63,747 bases of DNA from Elsinoe ampelina (taxonomy: Eukaryota), in contig ML992501.1 in NCBI GenBank assembly GCA_010093995.1, forward strand, positions 2,930,244-2,993,990, given 5' to 3'. Positions 1 through 25,158 of the stretch are shown in pieces. Both the position numbers and the translations under genes were made by a program. Numbering within the stretch: position 1 is the first letter of the stretch; each line of letters begins with the position of its first letter. The notes under the pieces were generated by a model. The model saw only the letters and a program-made list of their open reading frames with translations. It ran no database searches and was not told the DNA's origin.

Positions 1-3000
1 GTAGTAGCTTACTTAAGCCTATATAAGCCCTTTATAAGAATAATAAGCTTGTCCTATTTACTAGGAATTAGTATATCTTCTAGGTAGGAGATATAGTTCT
101 TAATATTAATGTCTAGTCTAAGGAATATAGTAACTGCATCTACTATTATAATAACCTAGTTATAATAAAGAGTATATACAAGGATTACTCTTCTAGTTTT
201 AGCTCTTAGTGTTAGTGTAAAGGTTCTAACAAAGTTAATACCTACTCTTTAAGTAAAGCCCCTTATAGTCTAATAAGCCTTATATCTTTTAACTTTGCTA
301 TTAGTAAGCCTCTTAGTCTTAAAGACCTATTTACCTGTTATTAGCCTAATACCTCTTAGTGCCTAAGATTTCTTAATAATTAAAAAGGTTTTAGAGTTAG
401 TTAGAGCCTTCTACTCTATCTCTATTATAGCTTACTAGTAATAACCTTTAGGAGAGAACAGTATATCTCTTACTATTTATAGGTCTAGCTTAAAATTAAC
501 AGCTATAGATCTAATAATCTTACTATTATTAAGTTTCTTATAATTAATCTAGCAATATATTCTAAGGGACCTTCTAATAGTTTCTTATAGTAAGAGAGAT
601 CTCTTCCTTTTACTAGTTAGAGGTTATATATTAAATAGTATAATAAGAAAGTTAATATCCTTATTCTATATATATATTAGTAGTTAATTAACATTAACTA
701 TAGGATTAAAGGTTAAATATAGTTCACTAATAACTTTAGGTAGTAGTATTATAAGGTCTTTACCTTTATAATTAGCAACATTAAGTTACTCCCCCTGTTT
801 ATTAATAGGTTAAGGATCTAGTTTAGGATATTAGTGTTACTTCTTCTATTCTTTAATAAGAGTAGATAATTGTTATTTATATCTAGGGATAGAAGGGTAG
901 TTAGATATTAGTTGTTTAACTTAAAGTTATTTAGCCTAAGTAGTTTATAGATTCTTATAACTAAAGAGTAGTTAGTTATAGCTATAGCCTTAATTATAAT
1001 TATTACTAAATGTCTACTCCCCTTAAAGCTATAAAGCCTTAGGTTGTTATACCTATAGGATATATAGCTATTTAATAACTTATATTACTTAGTCTTTATA
1101 GACTATATTCTTATTAAATGTTANNNNNNNNNNNNNNNNNNNNNNNNNNNNNNNNNNNNNNNNNNNNNNNNNNNNNNNNNNNNNNNNNNNNNNNNNNNNN
1201 NNNNNNNNNNNNNNNNNNNNNNNNNNNNNNNNNNNNNNNNNNNNNNNNNNNNNNNNNNNNNNNNNNNNNNNNNNNNNNNNNNNNNNNNNNNNNNNNNNNN
1301 NNNNNNNNNNNNNNNNNNNNNNNNNNNNNNNNNNNNNNNNNNNNNNNNNNNNNNNNNNNNNNNNNNNNNNNNNNNNNNNNNNNNNNNNNNNNNNNNNNNN
1401 NNNNNNNNNNNNNNNNNNNNNNNNNNNNNNNNNNNNNNNNNNNNNNNNNNNNNNNNNNNNNNNNNNNNNNNNNNNNNNNNNNNNNNNNNNNNNNNNNNNN
1501 NNNNNNNNNNNNNNNNNNNNNNNNNNNNNNNNNNNNNNNNNNNNNNNNNNNNNNNNNNNNNNNNNNNNNNNNNNNNNNNNNNNNNNNNNNNNNNNNNNNN
1601 NNNNNNNNNNNNNNNNNNNNNNNNNNNNNNNNNNNNNNNNNNNNNNNNNNNNNNNNNNNNNNNNNNNNNNNNNNNNNNNNNNNNNNNNNNNNNNNNNNNN
1701 NNNNNNNNNNNNNNNNNNNNNNNNNNNNNNNNNNNNNNNNNNNNNNNNNNNNNNNNNNNNNNNNNNNNNNNNNNNNNNNNNNNNNNNNNNNNNNNNNNNN
1801 NNNNNNNNNNNNNNNNNNNNNNNNNNNNNNNNNNNNNNNNNNNNNNNNNNNNNNNNNNNNNNNNNNNNNNNNNNNNNNNNNNNNNNNNNNNNNNNNNNNN
1901 NNNNNNNNNNNNNNNNNNNNNNNNNNNNNNNNNNNNNNNNNNNNNNNNNNNNNNNNNNNNNNNNNNNNNNNNNNNNNNNNNNNNNNNNNNNNNNNNNNNN
2001 NNNNNNNNNNNNNNNNNNNNNNNNNNNNNNNNNNNNNNNNNNNNNNNNNNNNNNNNNNNNNNNNNNNNNNNNNNNNNNNNNNNNNNNNNNNNNNNNNNNN
2101 NNNNNNNNNNNNNNACTTCTATATTAAGTAGCTTCTTTATACTAATAGCTTATTTAAATTTAAGAACACCTTTATATACCTTAATTGTTAAGAACTATAA
2201 CCTGTCTTTAATAAAGTGCCTTAACGCACTAGAGTTATAGATTACTCTATTCTTACTATAGGTTAAGGATAATAATATAGATACTACTACTGCCCTATAG
2301 ACTAGTATAATAATATTAATATTAGTGTTAGAGCATTTATCTAATTTACCTACCTTAGTAAGTTCTCTAGATTCTTTAATAGCTACTTAACCTTTAACTT
2401 TCTTAGTCTTTAACTTATTACCTTTACCTTTAGCCTTTATGCCTTTATTATTTAACCTGTCTTTGTTATTTCTTTTACTTTAACTCTTTAGTACTTTCTT
2501 AGGGTGCTACTTAAAGTAATCTATATTAGAGTAGACATAATAAGTNNNNNNNNNNNNNNNNNNNNNNNNNNNNNNNNNNNNNNNNNNNNNNNNNNNNNNN
2601 NNNNNNNNNNNNNNNNNNNNNNNNNNNNNNNNNNNNNNNNNNNNNNNNNNNNNNNNNNNNNNNNNNNNNNNNNNNNNNNNNNNNNNNNNNNNNNNNNNNN
2701 NNNNNNNNNNNNNNNNNNNNNNNNNNNNNNNNNNNNNNNNNNNNNNNNNNNNNNNNNNNNNNNNNNNNNNNNNNNNNNNNNNNNNNNNNNNNNNNNNNNN
2801 NNNNNNNNNNNNNNNNNNNNNNNNNNNNNNNNNNNNNNNNNNNNNNNNNNNNNNNNNNNNNNNNNNNNNNNNNNNNNNNNNNNNNNNNNNNNNNNNNNNN
2901 NNNNNNNNNNNNNNNNNNNNNNNNNNNNNNNNNNNNNNNNNNNNNNNNNNNNNNNNNNNNNNNNNNNNNNNNNNNNNNNNNNNNNNNNNNNNNNNNNNNN

Positions 3001-3563
3001 NNNNNNNNNNNNNNNNNNNNNNNNNTCTAGAAGTTTCTTTAAAGTCTTCTAAGTTATACTATAGTAAGGTCTAATAGATTTATAAATCCTTATTATAATA
3101 ATACTATAAGTAATTCTATTATTCTTATACCAGGTCTTATTCCTAACCTTATAGACTACCTTAGTACCTTTACTAGTATCTAGAGCTAGTTCTTTAGGCT
3201 TTATAACTACTAGTATCTAGTTAATGTTATAAATTACATATCTAAGTATATCCTTTTTAAGGAGGGCTACCTTAAGGGTTAATCTCTAAGCATTATAGTT
3301 GCTTTCTCTCTTAAGAATCTAAGTCTCGAGCATTTTTACTAATCTAGATATAATAATAGTAATTAGCTAAAGGCCTATTAATTTAATTAATATAATTAGC
3401 TTGTTTAAGCTGTTTAAACTGTTTAATTAAAGGGTTAATACGGGCTACTATAAGTGTTTATCTTAATGTAGCTAGTCTAGAATTTAGTGTAGGCGGCTTA
3501 GTAATCCTTTTAATAATAACACGCTTAATTTACTATAGCTTTAAGTGCTTTTGTAGAAGCGCC

Positions 3564-3575
3564 GGGCTTATAACC
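3564..3575 (-). other. Copia-type primer binding site (RIP-mutated GGTTATGAGCCC)
   Basis: Plus-strand gggcttataacc immediately abuts the LTR terminus tgtt at 3576. Confidence 0.7.
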
Positions 3576-3717
3576 TGTTATAACTAGCAAATCGGATCGA
3601 GAGACATATATTTCATTCAGAGAGTTACAATAACCGATTTATCTACTGTGCGTGCGCTGACTCATCAGTACCAGTTCTTCAGTACCAGAGAAGCTGTACC
3701 AGCCTTCCATTACAACA
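3576..3717 (-). repeat. 5' LTR (~142 bp) of the left copia element
   Basis: Bounded by TGTTATAA (3576) and TTACAACA (3710-3717), inverted termini TGTTGTAA with one RIP change; adjacent to the PBS. Confidence 0.6.
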
Positions 3718-3858
3718 CCTCCTTGCCTGATCATCGCCCGCTCCTGCATACCAACAGCAACTCCTCCAGTCGCCATCAGGAGCCTCACCCTGTCTCTCCC
3801 CTCCACATCCAACGTCAACCACAACCCACCTCATGCCCACCACCAGCATCACCACACC

Positions 3859-4689
3859 ATGATCTCCCGCGCCCTCACCCTCCTCTCAACCCCCATCATC
3901 CTCCTCCTCTCTATCCCCCTCACCCTCTTCGCCCTCCTCACCACCACCCTCGCCCTCCTCACCCTCCTCCTCCGCGTCTCCGTCATCTACCTCGAACTCC
4001 TCCTCGCCGTCCTCCAATCCTTCCTCCTCCCCTCCCCACCCCCAACAAAACCCCTCTCGCTCCGCCCCTCCTCCCCCCTCCTCCCCACCAACCAACCCCT
4101 CCACCACCACGCCCGCCGCCGCACCTCCTCCTCCTCCAGCGCAACCTCACTACACACCCCCAACCCCGGCCCGGGGCCCCAGCGCCTCACCAAACCCCCT
4201 TCCCTCGCCAGCCTCCTCGGCACCACCACCCCTCGCGACTACGAAAGCGTAGGCGGCTGGCGCCTCACCTCCGCCGACTCGGACGAAGAAGCCCTCTGGA
4301 CGGGCATCAACTCCCGCCTCGAACTGCCCGCGCTCACGGTGCCGAGTCCGGGCAACTTGACGCGGGACAACAACCACGGGGTTGCGGGCGGGGGCCGCTA
4401 CCACCATCGGAGTCTGACGGGGGGCAGTAGGAGGGGGAGCACGCGTGCCGGGACGGTGAGTGGGAATGGGAGTCCGGAGTTGGTCGCGCAGGGTGCCGGG
4501 GGGAGGAGGAGGGGGAAGGGGAGTGGGGCGGTGAGTCCGGAGGGGTATTTTTCTGGTCAAGGGGTGGTGGGGGTGGAAGGGGCGAGGGGGTTGGGGATGA
4601 CGAGTGCTGAGGGAGGGCAGGGGGGGAGGGGGACGAGGGAGGGGAGTAGAAGGGGGAGTGTGAGTTTGGTGAAGGTTAGGGGGGAGTGA
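3859..4689 (+). CDS. Hypothetical fungal protein, 276 aa, with an N-terminal hydrophobic/TM region and an S/P/G-rich tail
   Basis: Intronless ATG-TGA ORF; long hydrophobic N-terminus; a structured-looking segment RDYESVGGWR...ALWTGINSRLELP. Confidence 0.75.
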   Translation: MISRALTLLSTPIILLLSIPLTLFALLTTTLALLTLLLRVSVIYLELLLAVLQSFLLPSPPPTKPLSLRPSSPLLPTNQPLHHHARRRTSSSSSATSLHTPNPGPGPQRLTKPPSLASLLGTTTPRDYESVGGWRLTSADSDEEALWTGINSRLELPALTVPSPGNLTRDNNHGVAGGGRYHHRSLTGGSRRGSTRAGTVSGNGSPELVAQGAGGRRRGKGSGAVSPEGYFSGQGVVGVEGARGLGMTSAEGGQGGRGTREGSRRGSVSLVKVRGE

Positions 4690-11939: not shown

Positions 11940-13652
11940 CTATCGGTCCGTCATGCCGGCGAGCTCGGTGAGACTGTTCATGAACTCGGCCCATGCAGAC
12001 TTTCTGCGGTGCGCTACCTCGTCTTCGTCGTCCTGTTGTTTCCGCGCAGTATTCTCATCCTCGAGCTCGTGCTGCTCTGCAGATATATCATTCCCTTCGG
12101 AGTGTTCCTGGAATATTGTCTTGACAGTCGAGCGATGACTCTTGGAAGGCATAACCGAGTCCTGCTCGAATAAGACAATCATGCCGGAGTGCTGAAGAGC
12201 AGGAGGCGTTGGCAGTGTGTCAGCCTGACAACCTTGTGAAGCCACGGCCACAAGAGGCTGCTCGATGGTAGGTGTCGTGGGAAGATCATCAGTCTGCATG
12301 CCGGTGGCGTTGAACGTCTTCTCAGCCCAGTCCATCGGCGACGACCGCTCCTTGCCCTCAGCGGAGCCATTCGTCGATCTCGGTGTGGGGGGTGCCTCTC
12401 CCAACGCTTCTGGTTCCTGGACCTCCACTTCTCTGTCATCGCTGGCCCCGTCGAAACCAAACGAGCTGCTGAAGCGACGTATGGTGATTGATTGGACTCT
12501 GCCCTGCCTCTTCTTGCACAAATCCAGCTTCCAGTCTCCTTCTTCGTCGGGGTTCCTCCCGTCTTCACGATGCCTGACAATATCGGAAGGGGTTGAGGAT
12601 GTGACCCTATGCTTTGTCCTCCTACCTCGTTGCCGAGCATCCACATCGTCCCAGTCGCTCTTCCACTGATCTATACCACCGTCCAATGTCACTCGTTTCT
12701 CGCGCTCTTGCTCCGTTTCCTCCTCGTGTTCACCCTCTGCTTGCACCTCGAGAGCCTTGAGTTGTAATTTGAGAAAGAGCAATTCCGAGTGGTCGAAAGC
12801 GATGGCTGACTTTAGGGACTCGTTCTCGGACCGCAAGCTGAGAGCTTCGCGAGTGGATTCTTCCACCTGGTATGCATGCTGATCATTGAGCTCGCGCATC
12901 TCCTCGAAACGTTGTCGAAGGTCGACATTGGCTTTCGAAACTCGTTCCAGTATAGACGTCGCCTGGGCTAGGATACGTTCGCGGTCGACCTGGTGAATGT
13001 CTTCGTCCTCCTCTTCTAGCGGGACTTTCGTACGCACGTCGGTCGGAAGTGGAGTAAATGTCTCGTGACGCTTGCCATTCATCTCTGGCGAGGTAGCCTG
13101 TTGTGAGAAGTGATCATCGTCAACGAATCCCGAGTCACTCATGGTGCGACGATTGCGAGGGGACAGCTCCATGCCGACAAGTGATCTCTCCAGCTCGTCT
13201 AACCGGTCGCTAATCGAGTCGAAATTACTCTGTGAGGGTTTCTGTCGTAGCATATGTGCGCCGAGGTTGTTCAGTCGCAGCAGGACCCGTTGGACCTCTG
13301 GAGGTGTCATGTCGTATGCTCCAGTCTTGGAAACAGACCTTGACTCGTCCGTGAAATAGTCTGAGAAAGGCGAGTCGTGTGGTATTTGGATAGTCGAATC
13401 CCGCAAAGGCGTCAGGGGGTCTTGTCGCTCCATTGGCGCCGTGTGCGACCGAACGAGCGACGTGAAATGTGAAAGAGGTGAGTTATTGCGACTGTGGTGG
13501 GGTGGATTGAAGATGTGGGAGCGGGCCAGGTCGGCGTCGGGCGTCGAGAATCGTGGTTGATGCTTTGGTCGTGAGTACTCGCGTTTGTGGTACTTTGAAG
13601 ATGGTCCCGGGACGTGCCAGAAGGTAGAAGTTGAGTCCTTGGGCGACGACAT
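11940..13652 (-). CDS. Hypothetical coiled-coil protein, 570 aa
   Basis: Long intronless ORF with a central heptad-rich region (LRQRFEEMRELND...ELLFLKLQLKALEVQ). No family recognised. Confidence 0.75.
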   Translation of the reverse strand: MSSPKDSTSTFWHVPGPSSKYHKREYSRPKHQPRFSTPDADLARSHIFNPPHHSRNNSPLSHFTSLVRSHTAPMERQDPLTPLRDSTIQIPHDSPFSDYFTDESRSVSKTGAYDMTPPEVQRVLLRLNNLGAHMLRQKPSQSNFDSISDRLDELERSLVGMELSPRNRRTMSDSGFVDDDHFSQQATSPEMNGKRHETFTPLPTDVRTKVPLEEEDEDIHQVDRERILAQATSILERVSKANVDLRQRFEEMRELNDQHAYQVEESTREALSLRSENESLKSAIAFDHSELLFLKLQLKALEVQAEGEHEEETEQEREKRVTLDGGIDQWKSDWDDVDARQRGRRTKHRVTSSTPSDIVRHREDGRNPDEEGDWKLDLCKKRQGRVQSITIRRFSSSFGFDGASDDREVEVQEPEALGEAPPTPRSTNGSAEGKERSSPMDWAEKTFNATGMQTDDLPTTPTIEQPLVAVASQGCQADTLPTPPALQHSGMIVLFEQDSVMPSKSHRSTVKTIFQEHSEGNDISAEQHELEDENTARKQQDDEDEVAHRRKSAWAEFMNSLTELAGMTDR

Positions 13653-14136
13653 GGTCGGGGTAACTTGGAGATACTCTCGCTACTGCGCCATTTGAGGCGG
13701 CAAAAGCAGCAATGGCTGGTAGGATGACCTGCTTGCAGGGAATAGCATCCGAAGGGAACCAAAGGAGGAGGGGTGATCGGGCGATGATGTAGGCCGTCTC
13801 ATGCAGTCTCATGCGAGCTCTTCCGCAAAGGAATGGCTGGAAAGTGGAACCTTTTGGGTCGGTGCGGCTCTGCTTTGGCGCTAGGAGATCTGATTTGAGA
13901 TGGTCTGTGCCATTTTGCTCTTCCGCTCTCTCTTGGCTCATTTTCCTGCCTATTTTGGTTTGGCATGGTCTAACCCTAACCCTGGGTATTAAACTCCATG
14001 CCCTTGAATACACATTTCACATATTGATCTGTATCTACGGGACACTGGAAGTGTGTGACAATCCTTAGCTGTTTCTTGACATACTTCCAGACCCGTCATT
14101 CATTCATTGGCAGATCCTGGACTTCACATAGCCGTC

Positions 14137-15844
14137 ATGGCTGGCAAGGTACCCGCAAAAGATCTCCGTGGTATTTTTGGTGACTAATAATTGGCAAAGG
14201 TCAAAGTACTGCCGTCGATTCAAGACGTACAAGAGATCTTCGAATCAGGCAAGGCTCTCCAGAACCCACCAAATCTCATACCTCTCTGTGCTTCATTTCC
14301 GTCAGAGTTTCTCACACCTTCTGCGATATACCTAAAAGTTTCCGCCGCTTCCAAGTCAGACCATTCATTTCTCTTCGAGAGTGCCGCCACAACAGAGACG
14401 ATTGGCCGATATAGTTTCGTCGGAGCTGGTATGATCCACCATTCAGCCAGAGGAATCAACCTGACCCATCGCAGCTCCCCGCAAAGTATTGACAACCGGA
14501 CCTGGCCATGGACCTGAGGAAGACCCTATGCCGTTGCTCGATGCGGAGCTTTCAAAGTACCGAGTGGCAAGTATCCCTGGCCTACGACTACCACCAATGA
14601 CTGGTGGTGCCGTTGGGTATGTTGGGTACGACTGCGTCAAATACTTTGAGCCCAAGACGAAACGACCTATGGAAGACATCCTCAAGGTTCCCGAATCACT
14701 ATTCGCTTTCTACGACGAGATCGTCGTACTAGACCACTTCTTCCAAAAGATAATGGTCATCACCTATCTCAAAGTCCCCTCAGACGCTTCCGGCCTTCAA
14801 TCCGCCTACGACGAAGGCACCGCCACCATAAACCGCCTCCTCAGAATCCTCCAATCCCGCAGCCCCATCCCCTTTCCCCCTCAAGGCCCCATCCTCCGCG
14901 ACCAAAAATACACCTCCAACATCGGCCAACCCGGCTACGAACGGCACGTCCACCGCCTCAAATCCCACATCGTCAAAGGCGACATCATCCAAGCCGTCCC
15001 CTCCCAACGCATCGCCCGCCCCACCTCCCTCCACCCCTTCAACATCTACCGACACCTCCGCACCGTCAACCCCTCCCCCTACCTCTTCTACCTCTCCTGC
15101 TCAACCTTCCACATCATCGGCGCCTCCCCCGAACTCCTAGTCCAATCCTCCCAGGGGCGAATCATCACCCACCCCATCGCCGGCACCGTCAAACGCGGCC
15201 TCACCCCGGACGAAGACGAGCGCCTCGCCTCGGCCCTCCGCGCCTCCCTGAAGGACCGCGCAGAACACGTCATGCTCGTCGACCTCGCTCGCAACGACGT
15301 GAACCGCGTCTGCGACCCCCTCTCCACCCGCGTGGACAAACTCATGATCGTCCAGCGCTTTTCCCACGTGCAGCATCTCGTCAGCGAAGTCTCCGGGGTC
15401 CTCCGCGACGGCAAGACCCGCTTCGATGCGTTCCGCAGTATCTTCCCCGCCGGCACGGTGAGCGGTGCCCCCAAGGTGCGGGCCATGGAACTCATCGCCG
15501 AGTTGGAGGGGGAGAAGAGGGGCGTGTACGCTGGCGCGGTGGGGTATTTCGGGTACGGGAGTGTGGATGTGCGGACGGGCAAGGAGGAGGAAGGCGCGAT
15601 GGATACGTGTATTGCGTTGAGGACGATGGTGGTGAAGGACGGGGTGGCGTATCTTCAAGCAGGTGGGGGGATTGTGTTTGACTCGGACCCGGAGGAAGAG
15701 TATGTGGAGACGTTGAATAAGTTGAGGGCGAACATGACGTGTATCGAGACGGCGGAGGAGAGGCATTGGGATGATTTGCTGGAGGATACGAATGGGGAGG
15801 AGACAAAGGGGGAGAAGGTACACGTCGATTTTGCGGCGGGATAG
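14137..15844 (+). CDS. TRP2: Anthranilate synthase component I
   Basis: Motifs FLFESA, GRYSF, SPELLV, HPIAGT, EHVMLVDLARND, FPAGTVSGAPK, QAGGGIVFDS. Introns 14149-14199 and 14429-14474. Confidence 0.96.
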
Positions 15845-15955
15845 AGAGCTTAGTTAGGTAGTATGAATGAAGCTAGTCGTAAGGATATCTATGCATCTCA
15901 GGAGCACAGCACCATGTATGGTTCCATCTCAGGACTTCACCCTTCCATCCAGACA

Positions 15956-18913
15956 TCAACGAATCACGATCCCCCTCTCCCTCCCCAACCCAAAGCCCTC
16001 AACTTCCTCTAAAACCTCACTCCCCAAACTTCCCGGCCCGCCTAAACTCCCCACCACCCTCGCCCCTCCCGGCCCCTCCCCCCACACCTCATGAAACTTG
16101 ATACTCGCATCACTCGTCGCCACAACCAGACACCCCTCCCTATCCGTCCTCGTGCCCCTGCCCGTTCTCCTGCCTCGTCCCTTCCACTTTCCCCTTCCCC
16201 TCCCACCTACTCCTGCCTTCTCCGGCCCACCACGGAACGCGATCCCCCACAACGCCCTCTCCTCGCCTGCCCACTCGATCTTGACCCTTACTACACAATC
16301 AGGCCAACTATACACCGCTACTCGGACTTTATGCTCTGGTTGCGCGAAGCCGAATGTAGCTGCGATCTCCCGCCGGGTGGTACTCCACGTCAAACTGGTG
16401 ACTTGGGCGGCGCAATCGATGGCTGCTAGTTTTTGGCCGGACAGAGCGTGGTGGAAGTGGATCCCGCGGTCGTTGGAGCCGGCGCCGAGGGCGAGGAGGG
16501 AGGGTGCCCAGGGAGAGTAGGTCAGTGCTTTGACGGCTGCGGAAAGGGTGATGTGGTGTCGTGCTGAGGAGGAGGGCAGGGTGTTGTACGAGGAGGAGTC
16601 GATGTGTGGTCGCGGGGAGGCGAAGGGATAGGATCTCGCTGGTCTTAGGCTCGTCGGTATGCTGATGCGAGGGTGAGCATTGCCAGAAGGACCAGTGGCA
16701 TTCGGAGCTCGTCGAGACGATCGGCCGGAACGTTTGCTGTTGGGAAAGATTGTCCTGGCCTCAAATATGTAGACGCTGTTGTCGTTGCTACCGGTGGCGA
16801 GAAAGGCAGCATCGATCGACCAAGCTAAACCACAGACTTGTTGGCTGTGGGCTTCCAATCGGACAAGGATATTCAGAGCGCCATGCCAGTCATACAGACT
16901 TCGTTCGTCTTGATCAGGGTACTCAACAGCATAGACGTAGATGTTGCCAGCTTCGTCTCCGACCGCAAGTAGTTCCATCTCCGCCTTGACGGTGGAGTCG
17001 CGATAGGAGTGTCGCCTGATTTGTCGCGGAGAGAATGATACGCAAGACACTGGCGAGGGCTGATCAGAATCGAAGCAAGGTTCTCTGGCAAGCGTGTTCC
17101 ACAGCGTTACCCTACCATCGGCTCTTCCAATCGCCAGTATTGATTTCTGACCTGCCTCTGAGGAGAAGGAAAGAGAAGTGATGTGGCTTGAGAATGGTGA
17201 TGTCAAGCTCTCTGGCGTCTTTACGCCCTCTGCTTCCGACTAGAAATACACATTCGATCCAAGGCCGACTGCTAGGCATTGAGCGTTTGAACAGTAAGAT
17301 AGAAGTGAGCAGTAGTAGTCGTCTCGTAGACCAGGCGCATCCAGCACTGTATGGTGGGTCAGTCATGTCCCCGGCGTATTCTAGCTTGGACTCATCTGAA
17401 GGGTATGGCTGGCAGAGTTGGCTTCCGGACCATTATACCATGTGCTGAGAGGTTTGTCAGCATGTCAGAAGCGGACCTGCTTGACATACTCACGACTCGA
17501 TGGTGAATCATAGGTCCAAGCATTGTCTTTCCAAGCGGGCTTTGGTCGAGCAACGCTGAATCTGTCGTAATACCACGGCAAGCCTGACGATGGCCGGAGT
17601 AATGGCGGATTCAGGATCTTCTCGCATAGATGGTAGTCAAAAGCTACAGCGAGACGCTCTTTGAACATGTCTCGTTCCTCTGTCGGATCTCCTTTGCCAA
17701 AGAAGTCTGAGGCATGCAGTGGTGCATTTGTACCACTCGCGACTCGACGTCCCCTTCCATCCGAAATGCTGTGGACACCGTCGGAAAGAATTGTGTTGCC
17801 GTCCATGAAAAAGTTCGATCCTGTACTGACTGATCGTCGTGGGGCAGTGTATCTGTCTGCCCTCGGAAGAGCCGCTGCCATACCTGGCGTGCTGATTAAT
17901 CGCGAAGGGTAAGATCTGAATACGTCCAGGATGCGCTCGCTTGTCCTCGTACTCCGTAATGGGATAGCTCCGAAAGGGTCCAACGTCTCTGAATCTTGTC
18001 TTGTAAGTCGCTCAAATGTACTGAGCTCTCGAGGTGGCGTTGACAGAAGAGACTGGGTCCGTCCATCCCTCTCTCCGGATCTTCCGGGTACAAATCGGTC
18101 ATCCAACCGGAGACGCTTGCTCCCAACGCCAACGGTCCTGGGAGATCGATACTGCTTTGGCTTTGGATGCAAGACATGAGCATCTTTCGACTCTATCTGG
18201 TTCGTGGTGAGCCGAGAATTAGTGCTAGACGTGGTTATGACAGGCTGTGCGTCCGCCTTTTGCGTGACTACTGCCTCTGCTGTGTGTGATCGGGTCAATG
18301 ACGCATGCGTGTGATCTTCGGGATAGGATCCTGTCGATGGTTGTGCATCGTGATTGTTCAAGGAATTGCCTTCCTGACTGTGGTCCTTCCTGCTCTCTGC
18401 ACATCCGTCGAATGTTCCCGAGAATCTCAATGATACGTCGCCCTTGTTGCGGTTGTGAAGGACTCGAGTCTTGCTTACCACTCGACGTCGAAGTCCAGAG
18501 TCCAAGCAAGAATCTGACTTTGGGCGTTCTCCAGATGCCTTTCGATCTGTGACTGGTCCCTTGAGCGCCTTCCCTGTGCTCTTGTGGACTCTTAACTTTT
18601 CCCTTCCAGCGAATAGGTCCGACGGTAGTCGTTGTCGCTGGTGCTTTGGCGGGTCGTTCTCGCAGCTCGAGGATGACTTGTGACGACGATCCGGGTCGAG
18701 GATCAAGGTCTCGCCTCTGCTGTCCGTAGTTCGAGATTGAGCCTCAGAAAGCACACGGCCATGTTCCAACATGTACCCTGAACTTGCTCGGTGGTGCTCT
18801 TGGCCAACCGAAACATGTGGTGAGGCTTCCTCAGCATGGTGACCCGCATTGTTGCTCAGGGCGAGCAGAGGTCCAGAGACAGGCTCCTCCGATAGTTTGC
18901 GAGTGACCATCAT
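15956..18913 (-). CDS. AMA1: Cdc20/Fizzy-family WD40 APC/C activator, Ama1-like (meiotic), with an in-frame TAG at 17240-17242; start codon uncertain
   Basis: C-box DRFVP; PFRVLDAPGLRDDYYCSLL; HSQQVCGLAW; ATGSNDN; AAVKAL; GAGSNDRGIHF; AQVTSLTWS; C-terminal IR tail. Introns 17445-17493 (GT-AG) and 17349-17395 (AT-AC). The Ama1 subfamily call rests on recalled similarity to Pezizomycotina Ama1-type proteins. Confidence 0.8.
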
Positions 18914-19264
18914 CCGAGTCACGAGTTCGACGATCCGCGACTACAGCCATAGGTGTCGGTCGCTCTTTGGGCTCGTTGATGAGATCTAGCAAATCTCCAT
19001 TATGGCTAATACCACATCCAGACCGAACGATACTAATATGATTGAGAGCAGACTTCCAGATAGAATGGAAGGCTTCCCCCAAAAGAATACACTCTATTTT
19101 CGTCAAGATGAAATAAGATGAGATGACCTCGTCCGAACCGATATATGACAGCTTCGCCGCGGGAAAGCCGGACAGAGCCATCGCTCTTACCTTGTTCTAC
19201 AGTAGGCACTTCAACTTCACCACGTCATCTGAAGTCTGCATCCTCCTTACCAGGCTGATCCCGG

Positions 19265-20547
19265 ATGGCCAGTGTGAGTGTCAGGTATCTGCAAGGTCAA
19301 GTTCCCTTCTGACCACCCCGCAGCATGGCGTCGCCCGCTCTGCCCGCCGCGAGCTCTCCGCCAGTGAGAAAGCAAAAGAACAGAAGCACATATCACAGTA
19401 CCAGTCACTTGTAGCACAAGTCCAAGATCTTGTACGTATCTCTAGCCTTCATTCCTCCTAAACTCTCCTGATTGATCTCCAGTACCGCCAAAACGACTAC
19501 ACCTCCTCCTCCCTGCAACTCACCACCGCTCTCCTCTCCCAGAACCCTGAATTCTACACAATCTGGAACTACCGCCGTCAGATCCTGTCCTCTGTCTTTA
19601 GCACCGAGCTCTCTTCTCCTGCTCGCCCCGCCTCGCCATCTCAAACACCCGACGCCGAGGCCCTCAATTCAGCTCAGCGCGAGATTTCCCTCCTCATCCG
19701 CGAAGACCTCGCTTTTCTCCTACCACTGCAAAAGTTCAACCCTAAGGTCTACTGGCTATGGAATCACCGGGCATGGCTGCTGGGACAGGCTTCAGCGCAT
19801 CTCCCAATCACAACGGCGAGACAATTCTGGCGTGAAGAGCTAGGCTTAGTGGAGAAGATGTTGGGAAGGGATGAGAGGAACTTTCATGGTTGGGGGTACA
19901 GGAGGGAGGTCGTGGCAGCTTTGGAAGAGCTGAGGTACAGGGAACTGGTTGCTGAGAAAGACACGGACTCGGAGCAGGAGCTGGGAGAGGAAGCCAGAAC
20001 GGGTCTGAGGAGGGAAGCATCACTAGCGAAGCAGGAGTTTGAGTATGCGGATCGTATGGTCAGGGCGAATTTGAGCAATTTCTCGGCGTGGCATCATCGG
20101 CTACGACAGATATATCGACTGCTAGAAGGGAAGGGGGATACAGATGAGGCAAGGAAGGGGATGTTTGATGCCGAATTGGAACTCGTCACAGAAGGACTCT
20201 GGGTGTGTACAGGACCGAAAGATCAGAGTCTATGGTTCTACCACTTGGATCTCATGGCTACGCTGGATCCGGATGCAAGAGAGGAGTTCCGGATTTTGAA
20301 GGGCATCAATGATCAAGAACGAAGAGGGTATGTCGAGAAGCAGACGGAAGCGGTCAAGGAGATCCTCGAGGACAATGAGGATTGCAAGTGGGTGTACCAG
20401 GCGCTACTCGACCTCGCCCAGCTATACAAGCGGATAGGAGGGCAAGCCGATGATGATGAGATGAGGAACTGGCTCGATCAACTGGAGAAGCTAGATCCAC
20501 TACGAAAGCTGAGATGGCTCGACCTCCTTAAGAAACTAAATTTATGA
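19265..20547 (+). CDS. BET4: Rab geranylgeranyltransferase (type II) alpha subunit
   Basis: MAS/HGVAR start; PPTA repeats NPEFYTIWNYRR, PKVYWLWNHR, RNFHGWGYRR, SNFSAWHHR; DPLRKLRW tail. Two short 5' introns. Confidence 0.92.
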
Positions 20548-20571
20548 CTTCGGCCGACCCGATATGCCTTT

Positions 20572-22340
<1,769 letters not shown>

Positions 22341-23417
22341 TGTGTGTACTGTCTTTCTTTCTCCCTCGGCTGTCTACCTGTTTTATTTCTTTACAAATCT
22401 TCACCGACTCTGGAACCCCAAGCAATCATCAGTAATCTCTGATCCGCGTTGAGAGACCCAGCAACCACTGGTGATGCTGTACCGGACCCACGAGTCCACA
22501 TGGCAGGCGACATCTCAAGTGGGGGAGTAGAAGTGGGGTCCGACGGTCCCGGTGGGTAAAGGACGAGAATTGAAATGAGGCAAATTTTTCCTCGCTGAGA
22601 ACCGCTGGGAGGCTCTGCCAAAGTCGCGTCATTTGTTCCTCTTGAGACGCCTCCGAATGCCGGCACGTTGCGGACGGAAAATTGTTATTGTCATCAAGCT
22701 TTTGTGTCGAAGGCTGGCTAGTGGCTAAATCACATGCAGGAATAGAGCTCCAAGATGAGCAATGCGAGGCAAGCTTGGATGAGCATGAGTAATTAAGGGC
22801 ACAGGTCGGGATGAGGCTCTGTCCATACCATGAAATTATTCCAGTCATCGTGATCTAAACAAATAGTCCATGAGCCGCAAGGTAAGCTTTTGAATAATCT
22901 TATGCTATTCATTCTGGTTCTCTACGATCTATTGTGGTAGTTTCTCCACGCCCTGCACATGTTTCAGGACATCTTTCTCCTTGGAGTTTGACCGAGGCTG
23001 GCAAGGCTCAGTAGTTGGTTCTCCATGTCATGCACTCCACGCGGCGAACGGTGGGGGACCCTTGAGGGCACCCGGGGGTCAGACCCGGGAAGATCAGATT
23101 GGAGCTCATCTGCAGGGCAGAGACAGCAGAACCAGCAAGCCATGCACATCACCTGCCGCAACCGAAAGCCCCGGCGGGGGACCACCCATTCGATTCATCT
23201 TTTCTCCGAAACTCTCTCTGTCAGGCCCAGTTTACAGATCATTCGACAGCGGACGGACTCCCCCAGACGATCAGCTCTGCATGTGCGGCACTGGTCGAGC
23301 CCACCCTGTGCAGTGGTATATATGAATATGCTCTGATCCCCACATGATGATCGTGTTTGGTTTGTACTCTAATCTCTCTTTGCAACGGATTAGTTTTGCT
23401 TTCAGATTGCTTCCGTC

Positions 23418-25158
23418 ATGGCTCTTCCACCAAAGTGGTACCAGGTCAGCACACACTTTTCGGACTTGTTATACATATCTCTAACGCATAGATAGTTTCT
23501 GGTGTCCACCTTCGCCTCCATCGGTTCCATCCTCTATGGATACGATCTAGGAGTCATAGCAGGCGCCATCGGAGCCCCTTCATTCAAGGCCGAGTTTAAC
23601 CCAACAGCTAACGAAGTCGGTGCCGTGGTCTCTGTGTTCACTGGCGGGGCTTTCTTTGGTGCGGCTTTCTCAGGACCGTCCGGTGACTACCTCGGGCGTA
23701 GATGGACGATCGTGCTTGGTTCCATCGTGTTCATGCTCGGGGGTGGTCTCCAAGCTGGCGCAACCAACCTCAACTTCCTCTATGCTGGCCGTGCTATCGC
23801 TGGACTCGGTGTTGGATTCTTGGTAACCATCATCCCGCTATTTCAGAGCGAATTGGCGCACCCGAGCATCCGTGGACGTGTCACGGCTCTTCAGCAATTC
23901 ATGTTGGGTATCGGGGCGCTTGTGGCGACGTGGACGACCTTTGGTACCCTCAACTATAGTAACGACGATGATCTTCAATGGCGTCTACCATTAGCGATTC
24001 AGGTCATCCCTGCCGGTAAGAGAATCTCACCATAACATAGCCGAAAGAAGTATACTGACGAGATGATCAGGAATTCTCGGACTCCTTATCATGCTGTTCC
24101 CCGAATCTCCAAGATGGCTGATTGATCACGGTAAGCCCGAGGAGGGCCTCAAGACTCTCGCAAGGCTCCATGCCCACGGCGATGTGAATGATCCATGGGT
24201 CCGCGCCGAGTATGAACAAATACAAGAAGCCATTACCTATGAACATGAGCATGAAGCCAAGTCATACTCGGAGCTGTTCACGAACAGGTCCAGTTTCAGG
24301 AGGCTGTTCCTGGCTACCGCTATCCAGGCATCGGTTCAGATGGTGTGTTGTTTCCCCCTCCCCCCCACCTCTCCCTTCCAAACCTCCCCCGAGACCTTCA
24401 AGTTTATCAGCTTATTTTGCAAGACTGGCGTAAGCTCGATACAGTACTATAGCGTCACCATCTTCGAACAGATCGGTATCGCTCCTCAGGACACTCTCAA
24501 GTATCAGGGCATCTCATCCGTCCTTGCTCTCATCGCTCAGTTCATGTGTATACTGGTTATTGACTACACTGGACGTCGCTGGGTCCTGATCGGAGGCAAC
24601 TTCGTCAATGCTGTGACCTTCATAATCGCCACGATACTTCTCGCAAAGTATCCGCCAGGTGCTACAGACAATACAGCGGCAAGCTGGGGCTTCATATCAA
24701 TGACGTCGGTGCTTCTGAGTGCTGGCGTTACACATGCTAATTATAATTCCAGATGGCTGTTCAATATCTCATTCTCCTTTGCCTGTGGACCCCTTTCTTG
24801 GATCATTCCGGCCGAAATCTTCGACACACGCACTCGTTCAAAGGGCGTGTCCATTGCCACCATGGTGTCCTTCGCCTTTAACACTATGATCGGACAAACC
24901 ACCTCTGTAGCCATGGAGACTATCAGATACCGCTGGTACATTCTTTTTGTGGTCTGCAACATCACGAACGCCCTTTTCTTCTGGGCATTCTTGCCGGAGA
25001 CTCGGAAACGGCCTCTGGAGGAAATGAACTACCTGTTTACGAACGCTCCTCTTTTTGTACCAGGAATGAAGCCGGGAGACTTCGTTTCAAACGATCTTGA
25101 GAGGCGTGCTGAGGAGAAGGCACAGGCGCTGAGTACTGAAGATGTTGAGACCAAGTAG
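23418..25158 (+). CDS. MFS sugar-porter family transporter (possibly pentose/L-arabinose)
   Basis: GYDLG, GDYLGRR, PESPRWL, PAEIF, PETRK motifs; about 12 TM segments; start MALPPKWYQ. Four introns, including 24343-24423 and 24705-24752. Confidence 0.92.

Follow-up and report, generated by a model that had tools for sequence, protein, structure and literature searches.

An AT-AC intron of U2-type build in the AMA1-like gene of Elsinoe ampelina and its conservation among filamentous ascomycetes

Introns that begin with AT and end with AC, and that otherwise carry the ordinary signals of the major spliceosome, are known from animals and plants as U2-type (or 'type II') AT-AC introns, where they are rare and well conserved (PMC7072748; PMC1557818). 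Fungal annotations hold very few AT-AC introns (PMC7072748). One is described in Saccharomyces cerevisiae, inside the intron of RPL30; it has no minor-intron features, and an A-C interaction between its first and last bases is described for it (PMC11585973). Two further points of reference concern AMA1, a sporulation-related anaphase-promoting complex/cyclosome (APC/C) activator: the Mer1-activated intron of the S. cerevisiae gene (AMA1/SPO70), which has a non-consensus 5' splice site (PMC11585973; PMC10776026), and the editing site PSC33 of FgAMA1 in Fusarium graminearum (PMC10776026; PMC4817773). Here we describe an intron with AT...AC ends in an AMA1-type gene of Elsinoe ampelina. It lies on the minus strand at 17349-17395 of a stretch of 63,747 nucleotides (nt) of contig ML992501.1 (assembly GCA_010093995.1, positions 2,930,244 to 2,993,990), which we call the window. 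It is very probably a genuine spliceosomal intron, removed in the U2-type manner, and one copy of an old orthologous intron of this gene.

The intron and its removal from the RNA

The element and its putative branch site are as follows.

17349..17395, minus strand: AT-AC intron, 47 nt, phase 2, within the Arg codon of PFR/VLDAP; donor AG/ATGAGT, acceptor ATAC/AGT
17358..17362, minus strand: branch-site-like CTGAC; the branch A, at 17359, precedes the intron's 3' end by 10 nt

Read on the minus strand, the intron stands between CCC TTC AG and A GTG CTG GAT GCG CCT, opening with ATGAGTCC and closing with ACTGAC CCACCATAC; in the wider context, CCA GCC ATA CCC TTC AG/ATGAGTCCAAGC...GACATGACTGACCCACCATAC/A GTG CTG GAT GCG CCT, the 47 nt between the slashes run from 17395 down to 17349. 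Retention of the intron yields AGA TGA, and the open reading frame (ORF) 17392..17610 of the minus strand accordingly ends RKPTLPAIPFR, followed by a stop within the 47 nt. Its removal joins PAIPFR to VLDAPGLRDDYY, that is, PFR to VLDAP. Another minus-strand frame, taken from the stop-to-stop ORFs, reads (..T)VLDAPGLRDDYYCSLLSYCSNAQCLAVGLGSNVYF and then TAG. An earlier reading of this DNA from its letters (hereafter the sequence-only reading) had proposed a 47-nt intron with AT..AC ends at this place, whose retention would bring an immediate stop and whose removal would restore the conserved PFR-VLDAP junction; its coordinates and content are correct in the sequence, and the ORF frames bear out both consequences.

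Removal of the 47 nt is observed in RNA. Contigs from four sequencing runs (X1 to X4; none is recorded as RNA, and that they are RNA is our guess) were mapped on 12000-24000, where they behave like transcript assemblies: they show 11 joints, 10 of which are GT..AG introns of this and the neighbouring genes, and nine GT..AG introns of neighbouring genes are skipped by contigs of the same runs. A 1279-nt contig of run X1 (record 3) matches 16255-17347 with no differing letters, joins 17347 to 17395 with 47 letters skipped and 50 letters on the shorter side, and then joins 17444 to 17494 with 49 letters skipped, in this case with GT..AG ends on the minus strand. The contig includes the micro-exon at 17396-17444 and leaves the 47-nt intron out. 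On the plus strand the 47-nt joint was reported with TG..CA ends, but a single letter can be assigned to either flank, so that AT..AC on the minus strand fits equally. The joint caller could not exclude extra letters between the two sides, a remark that it also attached to most of the ordinary introns. Contigs of runs X2 to X4 have no cover over the AMA1 gene, from which nothing was concluded. Across 17330-17500, where the sequence-only reading had proposed to look for junctions, the 47-nt joint is bridged by this single assembled contig in a form compatible with AT..AC. One canonical alternative raised in the same reading, a skip from the donor at 17493 to the CAG ending at 17347, is not shown by the contig; it is the public gene model of Elsinoe batatas that takes this route, leaving out the exon to reach the CAG that corresponds to 17347 (SPSS/LLDAP).

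The build of the intron is that of its neighbours. The 10 RNA-supported GT-AG introns of the region are 46-71 nt long and have CTRAY 10-12 nt before their 3' ends, and the AT-AC intron, with 47 nt, CTGAC at 10 nt and the donor AG/ATGAGT, departs from them at its two terminal bases alone.

The host is a minus-strand gene for an AMA1-type APC/C co-activator (CDC20/Fizzy family) of an Elsinoe-like Dothideomycete. Its other parts are listed below.

17494..18940, minus strand: long upstream coding exon in the open frame of ORF 17465..18940; its start is tentative
17445..17493, minus strand: upstream intron, 49 nt, GT-AG, phase 1, GTGAGT...CTGAC...CAG; X1 contig joint 17444 to 17494
17396..17444, minus strand: micro-exon, 49 nt, coding (P)HGIMVRKPTLPAIPF and the first two bases of the Arg codon; the X1 contig joins both sides
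15956..17348, minus strand: last exon, putative WD40 propeller of CDC20/Fizzy type, from (R)VLDAP to ...VIR (IR tail) plus the stop codon
17240..17242, minus strand: in-frame TAG (TTC TAG TCG); VYF, stop, SEAEG here, against VY(L/F/T)WSE in relatives

A second contig of run X1 (record 4) covers 17676-19070, including most of the long upstream exon, without a joint. Downstream of the TAG, a frame of 427 amino acids (aa) runs from SEAEGVKTPE... to the C-terminal ...GIVIR. This protein end forms an IR tail, and a C-box-like DRFVP is found in the upstream exon at 18086-18100; the C-box (DRF(I/V)P) and the C-terminal IR tail are motifs of APC/C co-activators. When the last exon was translated through the TAG as Trp and used as a query, the protein proved 90% identical to an E. 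batatas protein over 463 aa and 61-62% identical to proteins of Myriangium and of a Dothideomycetidae species. It matches Pfam PF24807 (CDC20/Fizzy WD40) with E 4.6e-57 and 194 bits, slightly below the curated cut-off of 200, and the same domain is precomputed on nearly all the homologues. The E. batatas homologue, the C-box and the IR tail support the view, already taken in the sequence-only reading, that the gene is AMA1-like; its assignment to AMA1, as against CDC20 or CDH1, is a probable one that follows the names of the source proteins.

Conservation, loss and age of the intron

Metagenome contigs were scanned with an alignment of 32 relatives, yielding 391 stretches, 309 of which encode a relative; the best 80 were kept. 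At each locus the first Val codon of VLDAP was located and the DNA upstream of it was inspected. Seventy-seven of the 80 loci were informative, those left out being L024 (no upstream DNA), L074 (match start missing) and L066 (which begins at residue 145). They fall into three states.

AT..AC intron in exactly the position of the window intron, following base 2 of the Arg codon: 37 of 77 loci
Intronless, PFR or PYR running straight into VLDAP: 38 of 77 loci
GT..AG intron at the same protein junction, both cuts 2 nt downstream: 2 of 77 loci (L047 and L078; TTT CGA G/GTATGT...CGCAG/TA CTT)

That these AT..AC ends recur at one and the same point of the codon in 37 of 77 loci is more than chance would give. 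The question of the sequence-only reading, whether orthologues keep AT..AC or have GT..AG at this position, can thus be answered for the 39 related loci that have an intron: 37 keep AT..AC, and in the other two the ends are GT..AG and shifted by 2 nt. These two (L047 and L078, 2900-3010) represent one Capnodiales-like lineage and display a natural register switch between AT-AC and GT-AG.

Once identical sequences are collapsed, 29 distinct AT-AC introns remain, that of the window included, and the homologous introns are 44-53 nt long. Position counts come from 28 tabulated introns, L012 (ATACGT...GCTGAC...GCAC) having been added by hand as an extra sequence. At the donor, A1, T2, a purine (A or G) at +3 and G5 are each found in 28/28 and T6 in 27/28; at the acceptor, a pyrimidine at -3, A-2 and C-1 are each found in 28/28. 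The exon before the intron ends CAG (18), TAG (6) or TCG (4), and the exon after it starts AGT in all 28. In 26 of the 28 the branch site is a strict NCTRAY placed 10-12 nt ahead of the 3' end, and L012 has one as well; the remaining two of the table have CTCAC or CTCAT. The interiors are unrelated, and no shared motif stands out among the 29 sequences: the most frequent 5-mers occur in at most six, and several of these are from near-identical Alternaria-like copies. Such a combination of invariant ends, U2-type signals and free interiors is the pattern made by purifying selection on functional splice sites.

The coding sequence around the intron points the same way. At every distinct AT-AC locus the upstream exon stops two bases into the Arg codon, and A GTN opens the exon that follows. 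Most AT-AC loci have a second, ordinary intron further upstream, which leaves a micro-exon that always codes a basic stretch followed by VP.(I/L/T)(P/A)F. Since this micro-exon is still coding right up to the split Arg codon, splicing would have to be exact at the AT..AC ends. Its size was taken from the first candidate found by a script in 31 distinct contexts: 52 nt in 15, 55 nt in seven and 49 nt in two, including the window; the remaining seven comprise the GT-AG form L047 (54 nt), one context each with 48, 46 and 44 nt, and three with no candidate. The 54 nt of L047 equal 52 plus the 2-nt shift, suggesting that its GT-AG intron is the same intron in another register and not a new gain. 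As for the intronless loci, 18 of their 28 distinct contexts are open for at least 200 codons upstream, which indicates that both introns are gone, whereas the other 10 are open for 30-49 codons, so that the upstream intron was probably kept and the AT-AC intron alone lost.

Taxonomic placement was obtained by comparing the locus proteins with 53 named proteins and by a quick unrooted gene tree (111 rows, several long branches, 31 weak forks). AT-AC loci group with Aureobasidium (L007 shares 98% identity with A. pullulans, while L005 and L051 match another strain at 91-92%), with Alternaria (identity to A. conjuncta is 99-100% for L027-L030; L025, L026 and L062 reach 87-91%) and with further Pleosporales close to Zopfia, Coniothyrium and Exserohilum. 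The Myriangiales group of the window contains L044, which sits on a long branch, and L001, L008 and L034 are singletons on the tree. AT-AC loci are also found with Lecanoromycetes (L073, L075, L077/L079 and L080), the nearest named proteins being those of Psora and Teloschistales. Two more, L035 and L036, form a separate clade whose related proteins are placed at phylum level only. The intronless loci comprise Mycosphaerellales/Capnodiales-like sequences, one Venturia-like sequence, Lecanoromycetes resembling Xylographa, and a number of groups without a name. None of the metagenome loci could be placed in the Eurotiomycetes, Sordariomycetes or Leotiomycetes.

For the 58 tree rows with a known state (28 AT-AC, 28 without intron, 2 GT-AG) at least seven changes are needed. 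The simplest history would be that of one old AT-AC intron, present before the split of Dothideomycetes and Lecanoromycetes and then precisely lost time and again. Dating studies put that split several hundred million years back.

Splicing mechanism and rival explanations

The conserved positions suggest how the intron would be handled by the major spliceosome. U1 and U6 would pair with the otherwise consensus donor AG/AURNGU, U1 tolerating the mismatch at +1 and U6 pairing with +4 to +6, while U2 would pair with CTRAY 10-12 nt upstream of the 3' end. At exon ligation the first base A would pair with the last base C in a non-Watson-Crick manner, replacing the usual G-G, and it is because the first base of the intron is A that AC would be used instead of the AG two bases on. 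Compatibility of A and C at the first and last bases is reported in PMC11585973, which cites Parker and Siliciano 1993 and cryo-electron microscopy work; the yeast background given in the sequence-only reading, namely this compatibility and Mer1-dependent splicing of AMA1, matches that source. Dependence on U1, U2, U4 and U6 is suggested by the motifs together with the reported lack of a minor spliceosome in Dikarya. The removal in RNA, the conserved ends, the U2-like signals and the lack of U12 signals are observed; from them we infer the identity of the spliceosome, the A-C pairing and the reason for retention.

That reason may be simple. AT..AC would be kept for long periods since both ends must change together: either single change should block splicing, so that the pair is trapped, with intron loss as its main exit and a coupled shift as another. 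Exit by loss is what the loci show, and with the ends coupled in this way retention needs no special function. AT-AC pairs are reported to be more conserved between species than GC-AG pairs (PMC7072748).

Several points weigh against the reading of a conserved, U2-type spliced intron. The RNA support is one assembled contig from one run of guessed kind, and its joint is ambiguous by 1 nt (TG..CA or AT..AC). Splicing in other species would follow from their DNA alone: among the database proteins fetched, the exact spliced junction was found for 0/37 of the AT-AC metagenome loci. The lack of U11, U12, U4atac and U6atac in this organism is taken from the literature. The taxon labels, finally, derive from protein identity and from a quick unrooted tree with several long branches, and with no Eurotiomycete, Sordariomycete or Leotiomycete loci identified the depth of origin is bounded from one side only.

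The strongest of the rival explanations, which we hold to be unlikely, is that of a regulated gate. The AT-AC intron would be weak and spliced efficiently only during sexual development or ascospore formation, limiting the AMA1 protein to that stage, and in Elsinoe editing of the in-frame TAG would add a second step to the lock. AMA1 is gated by Mer1-activated meiotic splicing in S. cerevisiae (PMC11585973; PMC10776026) and by sexual-stage editing of a premature TAG, PSC33, in F. graminearum (PMC10776026). The latter paper reports six independent origins of the stop at the PSC33 site in Sordariomycetes and a maximal editing level of 63% (supplement), and its authors name yeast AMA1 splicing as a parallel solution. 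AMA1 being gated already by splicing in one fungus and by RNA editing in another, the AT-AC intron may have a similar role. AT..AC is kept across classes, and with the intron retained 26 of the 29 distinct sequences would lose the reading frame or run into a stop; in the other three, retention would just add residues. Against a gate, the sole contig, from one run, has the intron removed and the TAG unedited. The Mer1 enhancer AYACCCUY (motif from PMC11585973) occurs in 0/29 distinct introns, whose interiors, as said, have no common motif. Thirty-eight loci have lost the intron altogether, with the repeated changes of state seen on the tree, and so many outright losses suggest that it is dispensable; the coupling of the ends, moreover, explains retention without regulation.

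The TAG itself stands at a codon that is Trp in 79/79 related loci covering it and TAG in none, which suggests that the stop is confined to the Elsinoe lineage. This invariance may be counted in favour of the gate; yet the intron is widespread where the TAG is absent, so the two features do not travel together and do not co-occur outside Elsinoe. The site shows the context of premature-stop editing, being in frame, at a conserved Trp and preceded by U at -1. The X1 contig has A at 17241 and no other letters, contigs being prone to drop minor variants. The E. batatas model jumps from ...AQCLA to SEAEG, removing the ten codons that would hold the TAG, and this suggests that the stop is shared by two species. 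Hairpins predicted around the TAG or the intron have energies no better than those of shuffled sequences (z +1.8, -0.2 and +0.9). We regard the TAG as a candidate site of restorative adenosine-to-inosine (A-to-I) editing, or else as a recent lesion. In its fullest form, the hypothesis would make the AT-AC intron a third independent post-transcriptional gate on AMA1, a slow U2-type intron conserved for hundreds of millions of years and productively spliced only where a factor or condition of the sexual stage permits it, with Elsinoe adding an edited TAG. This is rather doubtful; if true, it would mean that an APC/C activator is kept off in vegetative cells.

It is improbable that the true cut lies one base on, at 17348-17394, which would give TG..CA in the window and TA..CA in most relatives. 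The X1 joint, reported as TG..CA with 1 nt fitting either side, would allow it. So would the base that follows the intron: the Arg codon ends in A in 29/29 distinct intron-bearing sequences (28/28 AGT in the table), against 11/28 intronless contexts (CGA in nine, AGA in two), a comparison of related sequences that provides no clean statistical test. Because this A is invariant, comparison among the loci does not settle the 1-nt ambiguity. The AT..AC reading, however, aligns all conserved positions with the U2 consensus CAG/(A)URNGU...YA(C), while the shifted cut puts every one of them out of register. We know of no precedent for a U...A pair of splice sites. The A-C pair, on the other hand, has experimental precedent (PMC11585973).

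With the cut at AT..AC, the same invariant A means that the 3' region always reads YAC/AG, with a canonical YAG overlapping the AC site. The overlapping CAG may aid early recognition of the 3' site, or may have been left behind by a GT-AG ancestor that used the shifted register. One may speculate that 2 nt gained or lost at the donor (GAG/GTATGT against G/ATATGT) could turn either register into the other if the acceptor were ACAG; the acceptor of L047 is GCAG, unlike the ACAG of this idea.

A decaying pseudogene or an assembly error, in which the odd ends and the TAG would be lesions and the intron non-functional, is very improbable. Two unusual features do stand no more than 110 nt apart, the contig carries the TAG in unedited form, and the WD40_CDC20-Fz score of 194 bits is just under its cut-off of 200. 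Against this, the 47 nt are removed in RNA and the same ends recur in 28 other distinct fungal sequences; the rest of the gene is open and close to that of E. batatas over the length given above, with C-box and IR tail intact; and the E. batatas model, by excising the stop-bearing segment too, suggests a TAG common to two species without further decay.

Least tenable of all is a U12-type intron removed by the minor spliceosome, already largely refuted by the motifs: it shares the AT..AC ends, and 17 of the 28 tabulated introns start with ATAT, the first four bases of the U12 donor, but the donor /ATATCCTT (ATATCC) is found in 0/28, the window having ATGAGT, the branch motif TCCTTAAC is absent 10-15 nt from the 3' end in all 28, where the window and its relatives have sites of CTRAY type, +5 G and +6 T are as in the U2 consensus, the build is identical to that of neighbouring GT-AG introns, and Ascomycota are reported to have no convincing minor introns and to lack most minor small nuclear RNAs, the minor spliceosome being absent from Dikarya (PMC10639083). 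The sole CCTTAAC, at locus L062, stands at intron position 7, not close to the 3' end. The ordinary U2 donor and branch site without U12 signals, as put forward in the sequence-only reading, are found in the window and throughout the tabulated introns. A bolder extension of the third-gate hypothesis would make this intron what remains of a U12-type AT-AC ancestor that passed to the major spliceosome at the time when the minor one disappeared from Dikarya; no description of a minor intron in FZR1 was found in open-access PMC papers and bioRxiv preprints.

Annotation, neighbouring genes and comparison with known systems

In at least two filamentous-ascomycete classes the intron is an old feature of AMA1, widely conserved and widely mis-annotated. 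At the junction, the 53 named public models fall into these groups.

PFR directly before VLDAP: 22 models
Intron read as protein (PFR-YV...T-VLDAP): 2 models
Odd: 1 model
No PFR before LDAP: 26 models
Region missing: 2 models

The intron is translated in the public models of A. pullulans and Trypethelium, and in models P0002, P0062, P0086, P0116, P0119 and others either the micro-exon is skipped or the AT-AC intron is translated. Loci nearly identical to those of Alternaria-, Aureobasidium- and Zopfia-like fungi carry the AT-AC intron in their DNA at this junction. The Xylographa-like loci are intronless, yet the Xylographa models lack PFR, so not every missing PFR is due to the intron. Gene finders usually miss the AT-AC intron of AMA1, and annotation is affected.

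Two genes flank this one in the window. The plus-strand gene at 14465-15844 has the look of an anthranilate-synthase/chorismate-binding enzyme, and that at 19462-20547, also on the plus strand, of a prenyltransferase alpha-subunit repeat protein, in both cases presumably, by their motifs. Both are transcribed in runs X1-X4 and have ordinary short GT-AG introns. Positions 1-4000 of the window form an AT-rich block with a G+C content of 0.15-0.25, against 0.50-0.60 elsewhere, which resembles an isochore left by repeat-induced point mutation.

No earlier description of an AMA1 AT-AC intron was found in open-access PMC papers and bioRxiv preprints, a search that leaves subscription journals mostly outside. 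U2-type AT-AC introns are very rare in fungi, and the 29 natural variants, the many precise losses and the one shifted GT-AG form offer a comparative series on the constraint on first and last bases and on the ways of escaping it.

Among known systems, the type II AT-AC introns of animals and plants are alike in their AT...AC ends, their ordinary major-spliceosome signals, their rarity and their conservation. The present intron differs from them in that its host is a filamentous ascomycete, presumably free of a minor spliceosome that could blur the picture, and in that it is very short, at 44-53 nt. It is, moreover, a single orthologous intron followed through two or more classes of fungi, in which it was lost repeatedly and took, in one case, a GT-AG form displaced by 2 nt. 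U12-type AT-AC introns share the terminal dinucleotides, but their donor and branch motifs do not occur here. The AT-AC intron within RPL30 of S. cerevisiae is likewise fungal, likewise devoid of minor-intron features and likewise connected with an A-C interaction; it is situated within an annotated intron, whereas the one described here is kept across many genera and interrupts a coding sequence whose reading frame depends on it. The yeast AMA1 intron belongs to the same gene family and also has an unusual 5' splice site in a sporulation-related APC/C activator; in our introns AYACCCUY is absent and the ends are AT-AC instead of a weak GU donor. The likeness to PSC33 of FgAMA1, finally, concerns the neighbouring TAG of the same gene, preceded by T and placed at a conserved Trp, and not the intron; the A is unedited in the contig here, and the Trp may be a different one. 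The origin of such editing is placed in Sordariomycetes (PMC10776026), whereas the fungus here is a Dothideomycete, in which an edited TAG, if true, would be notable.

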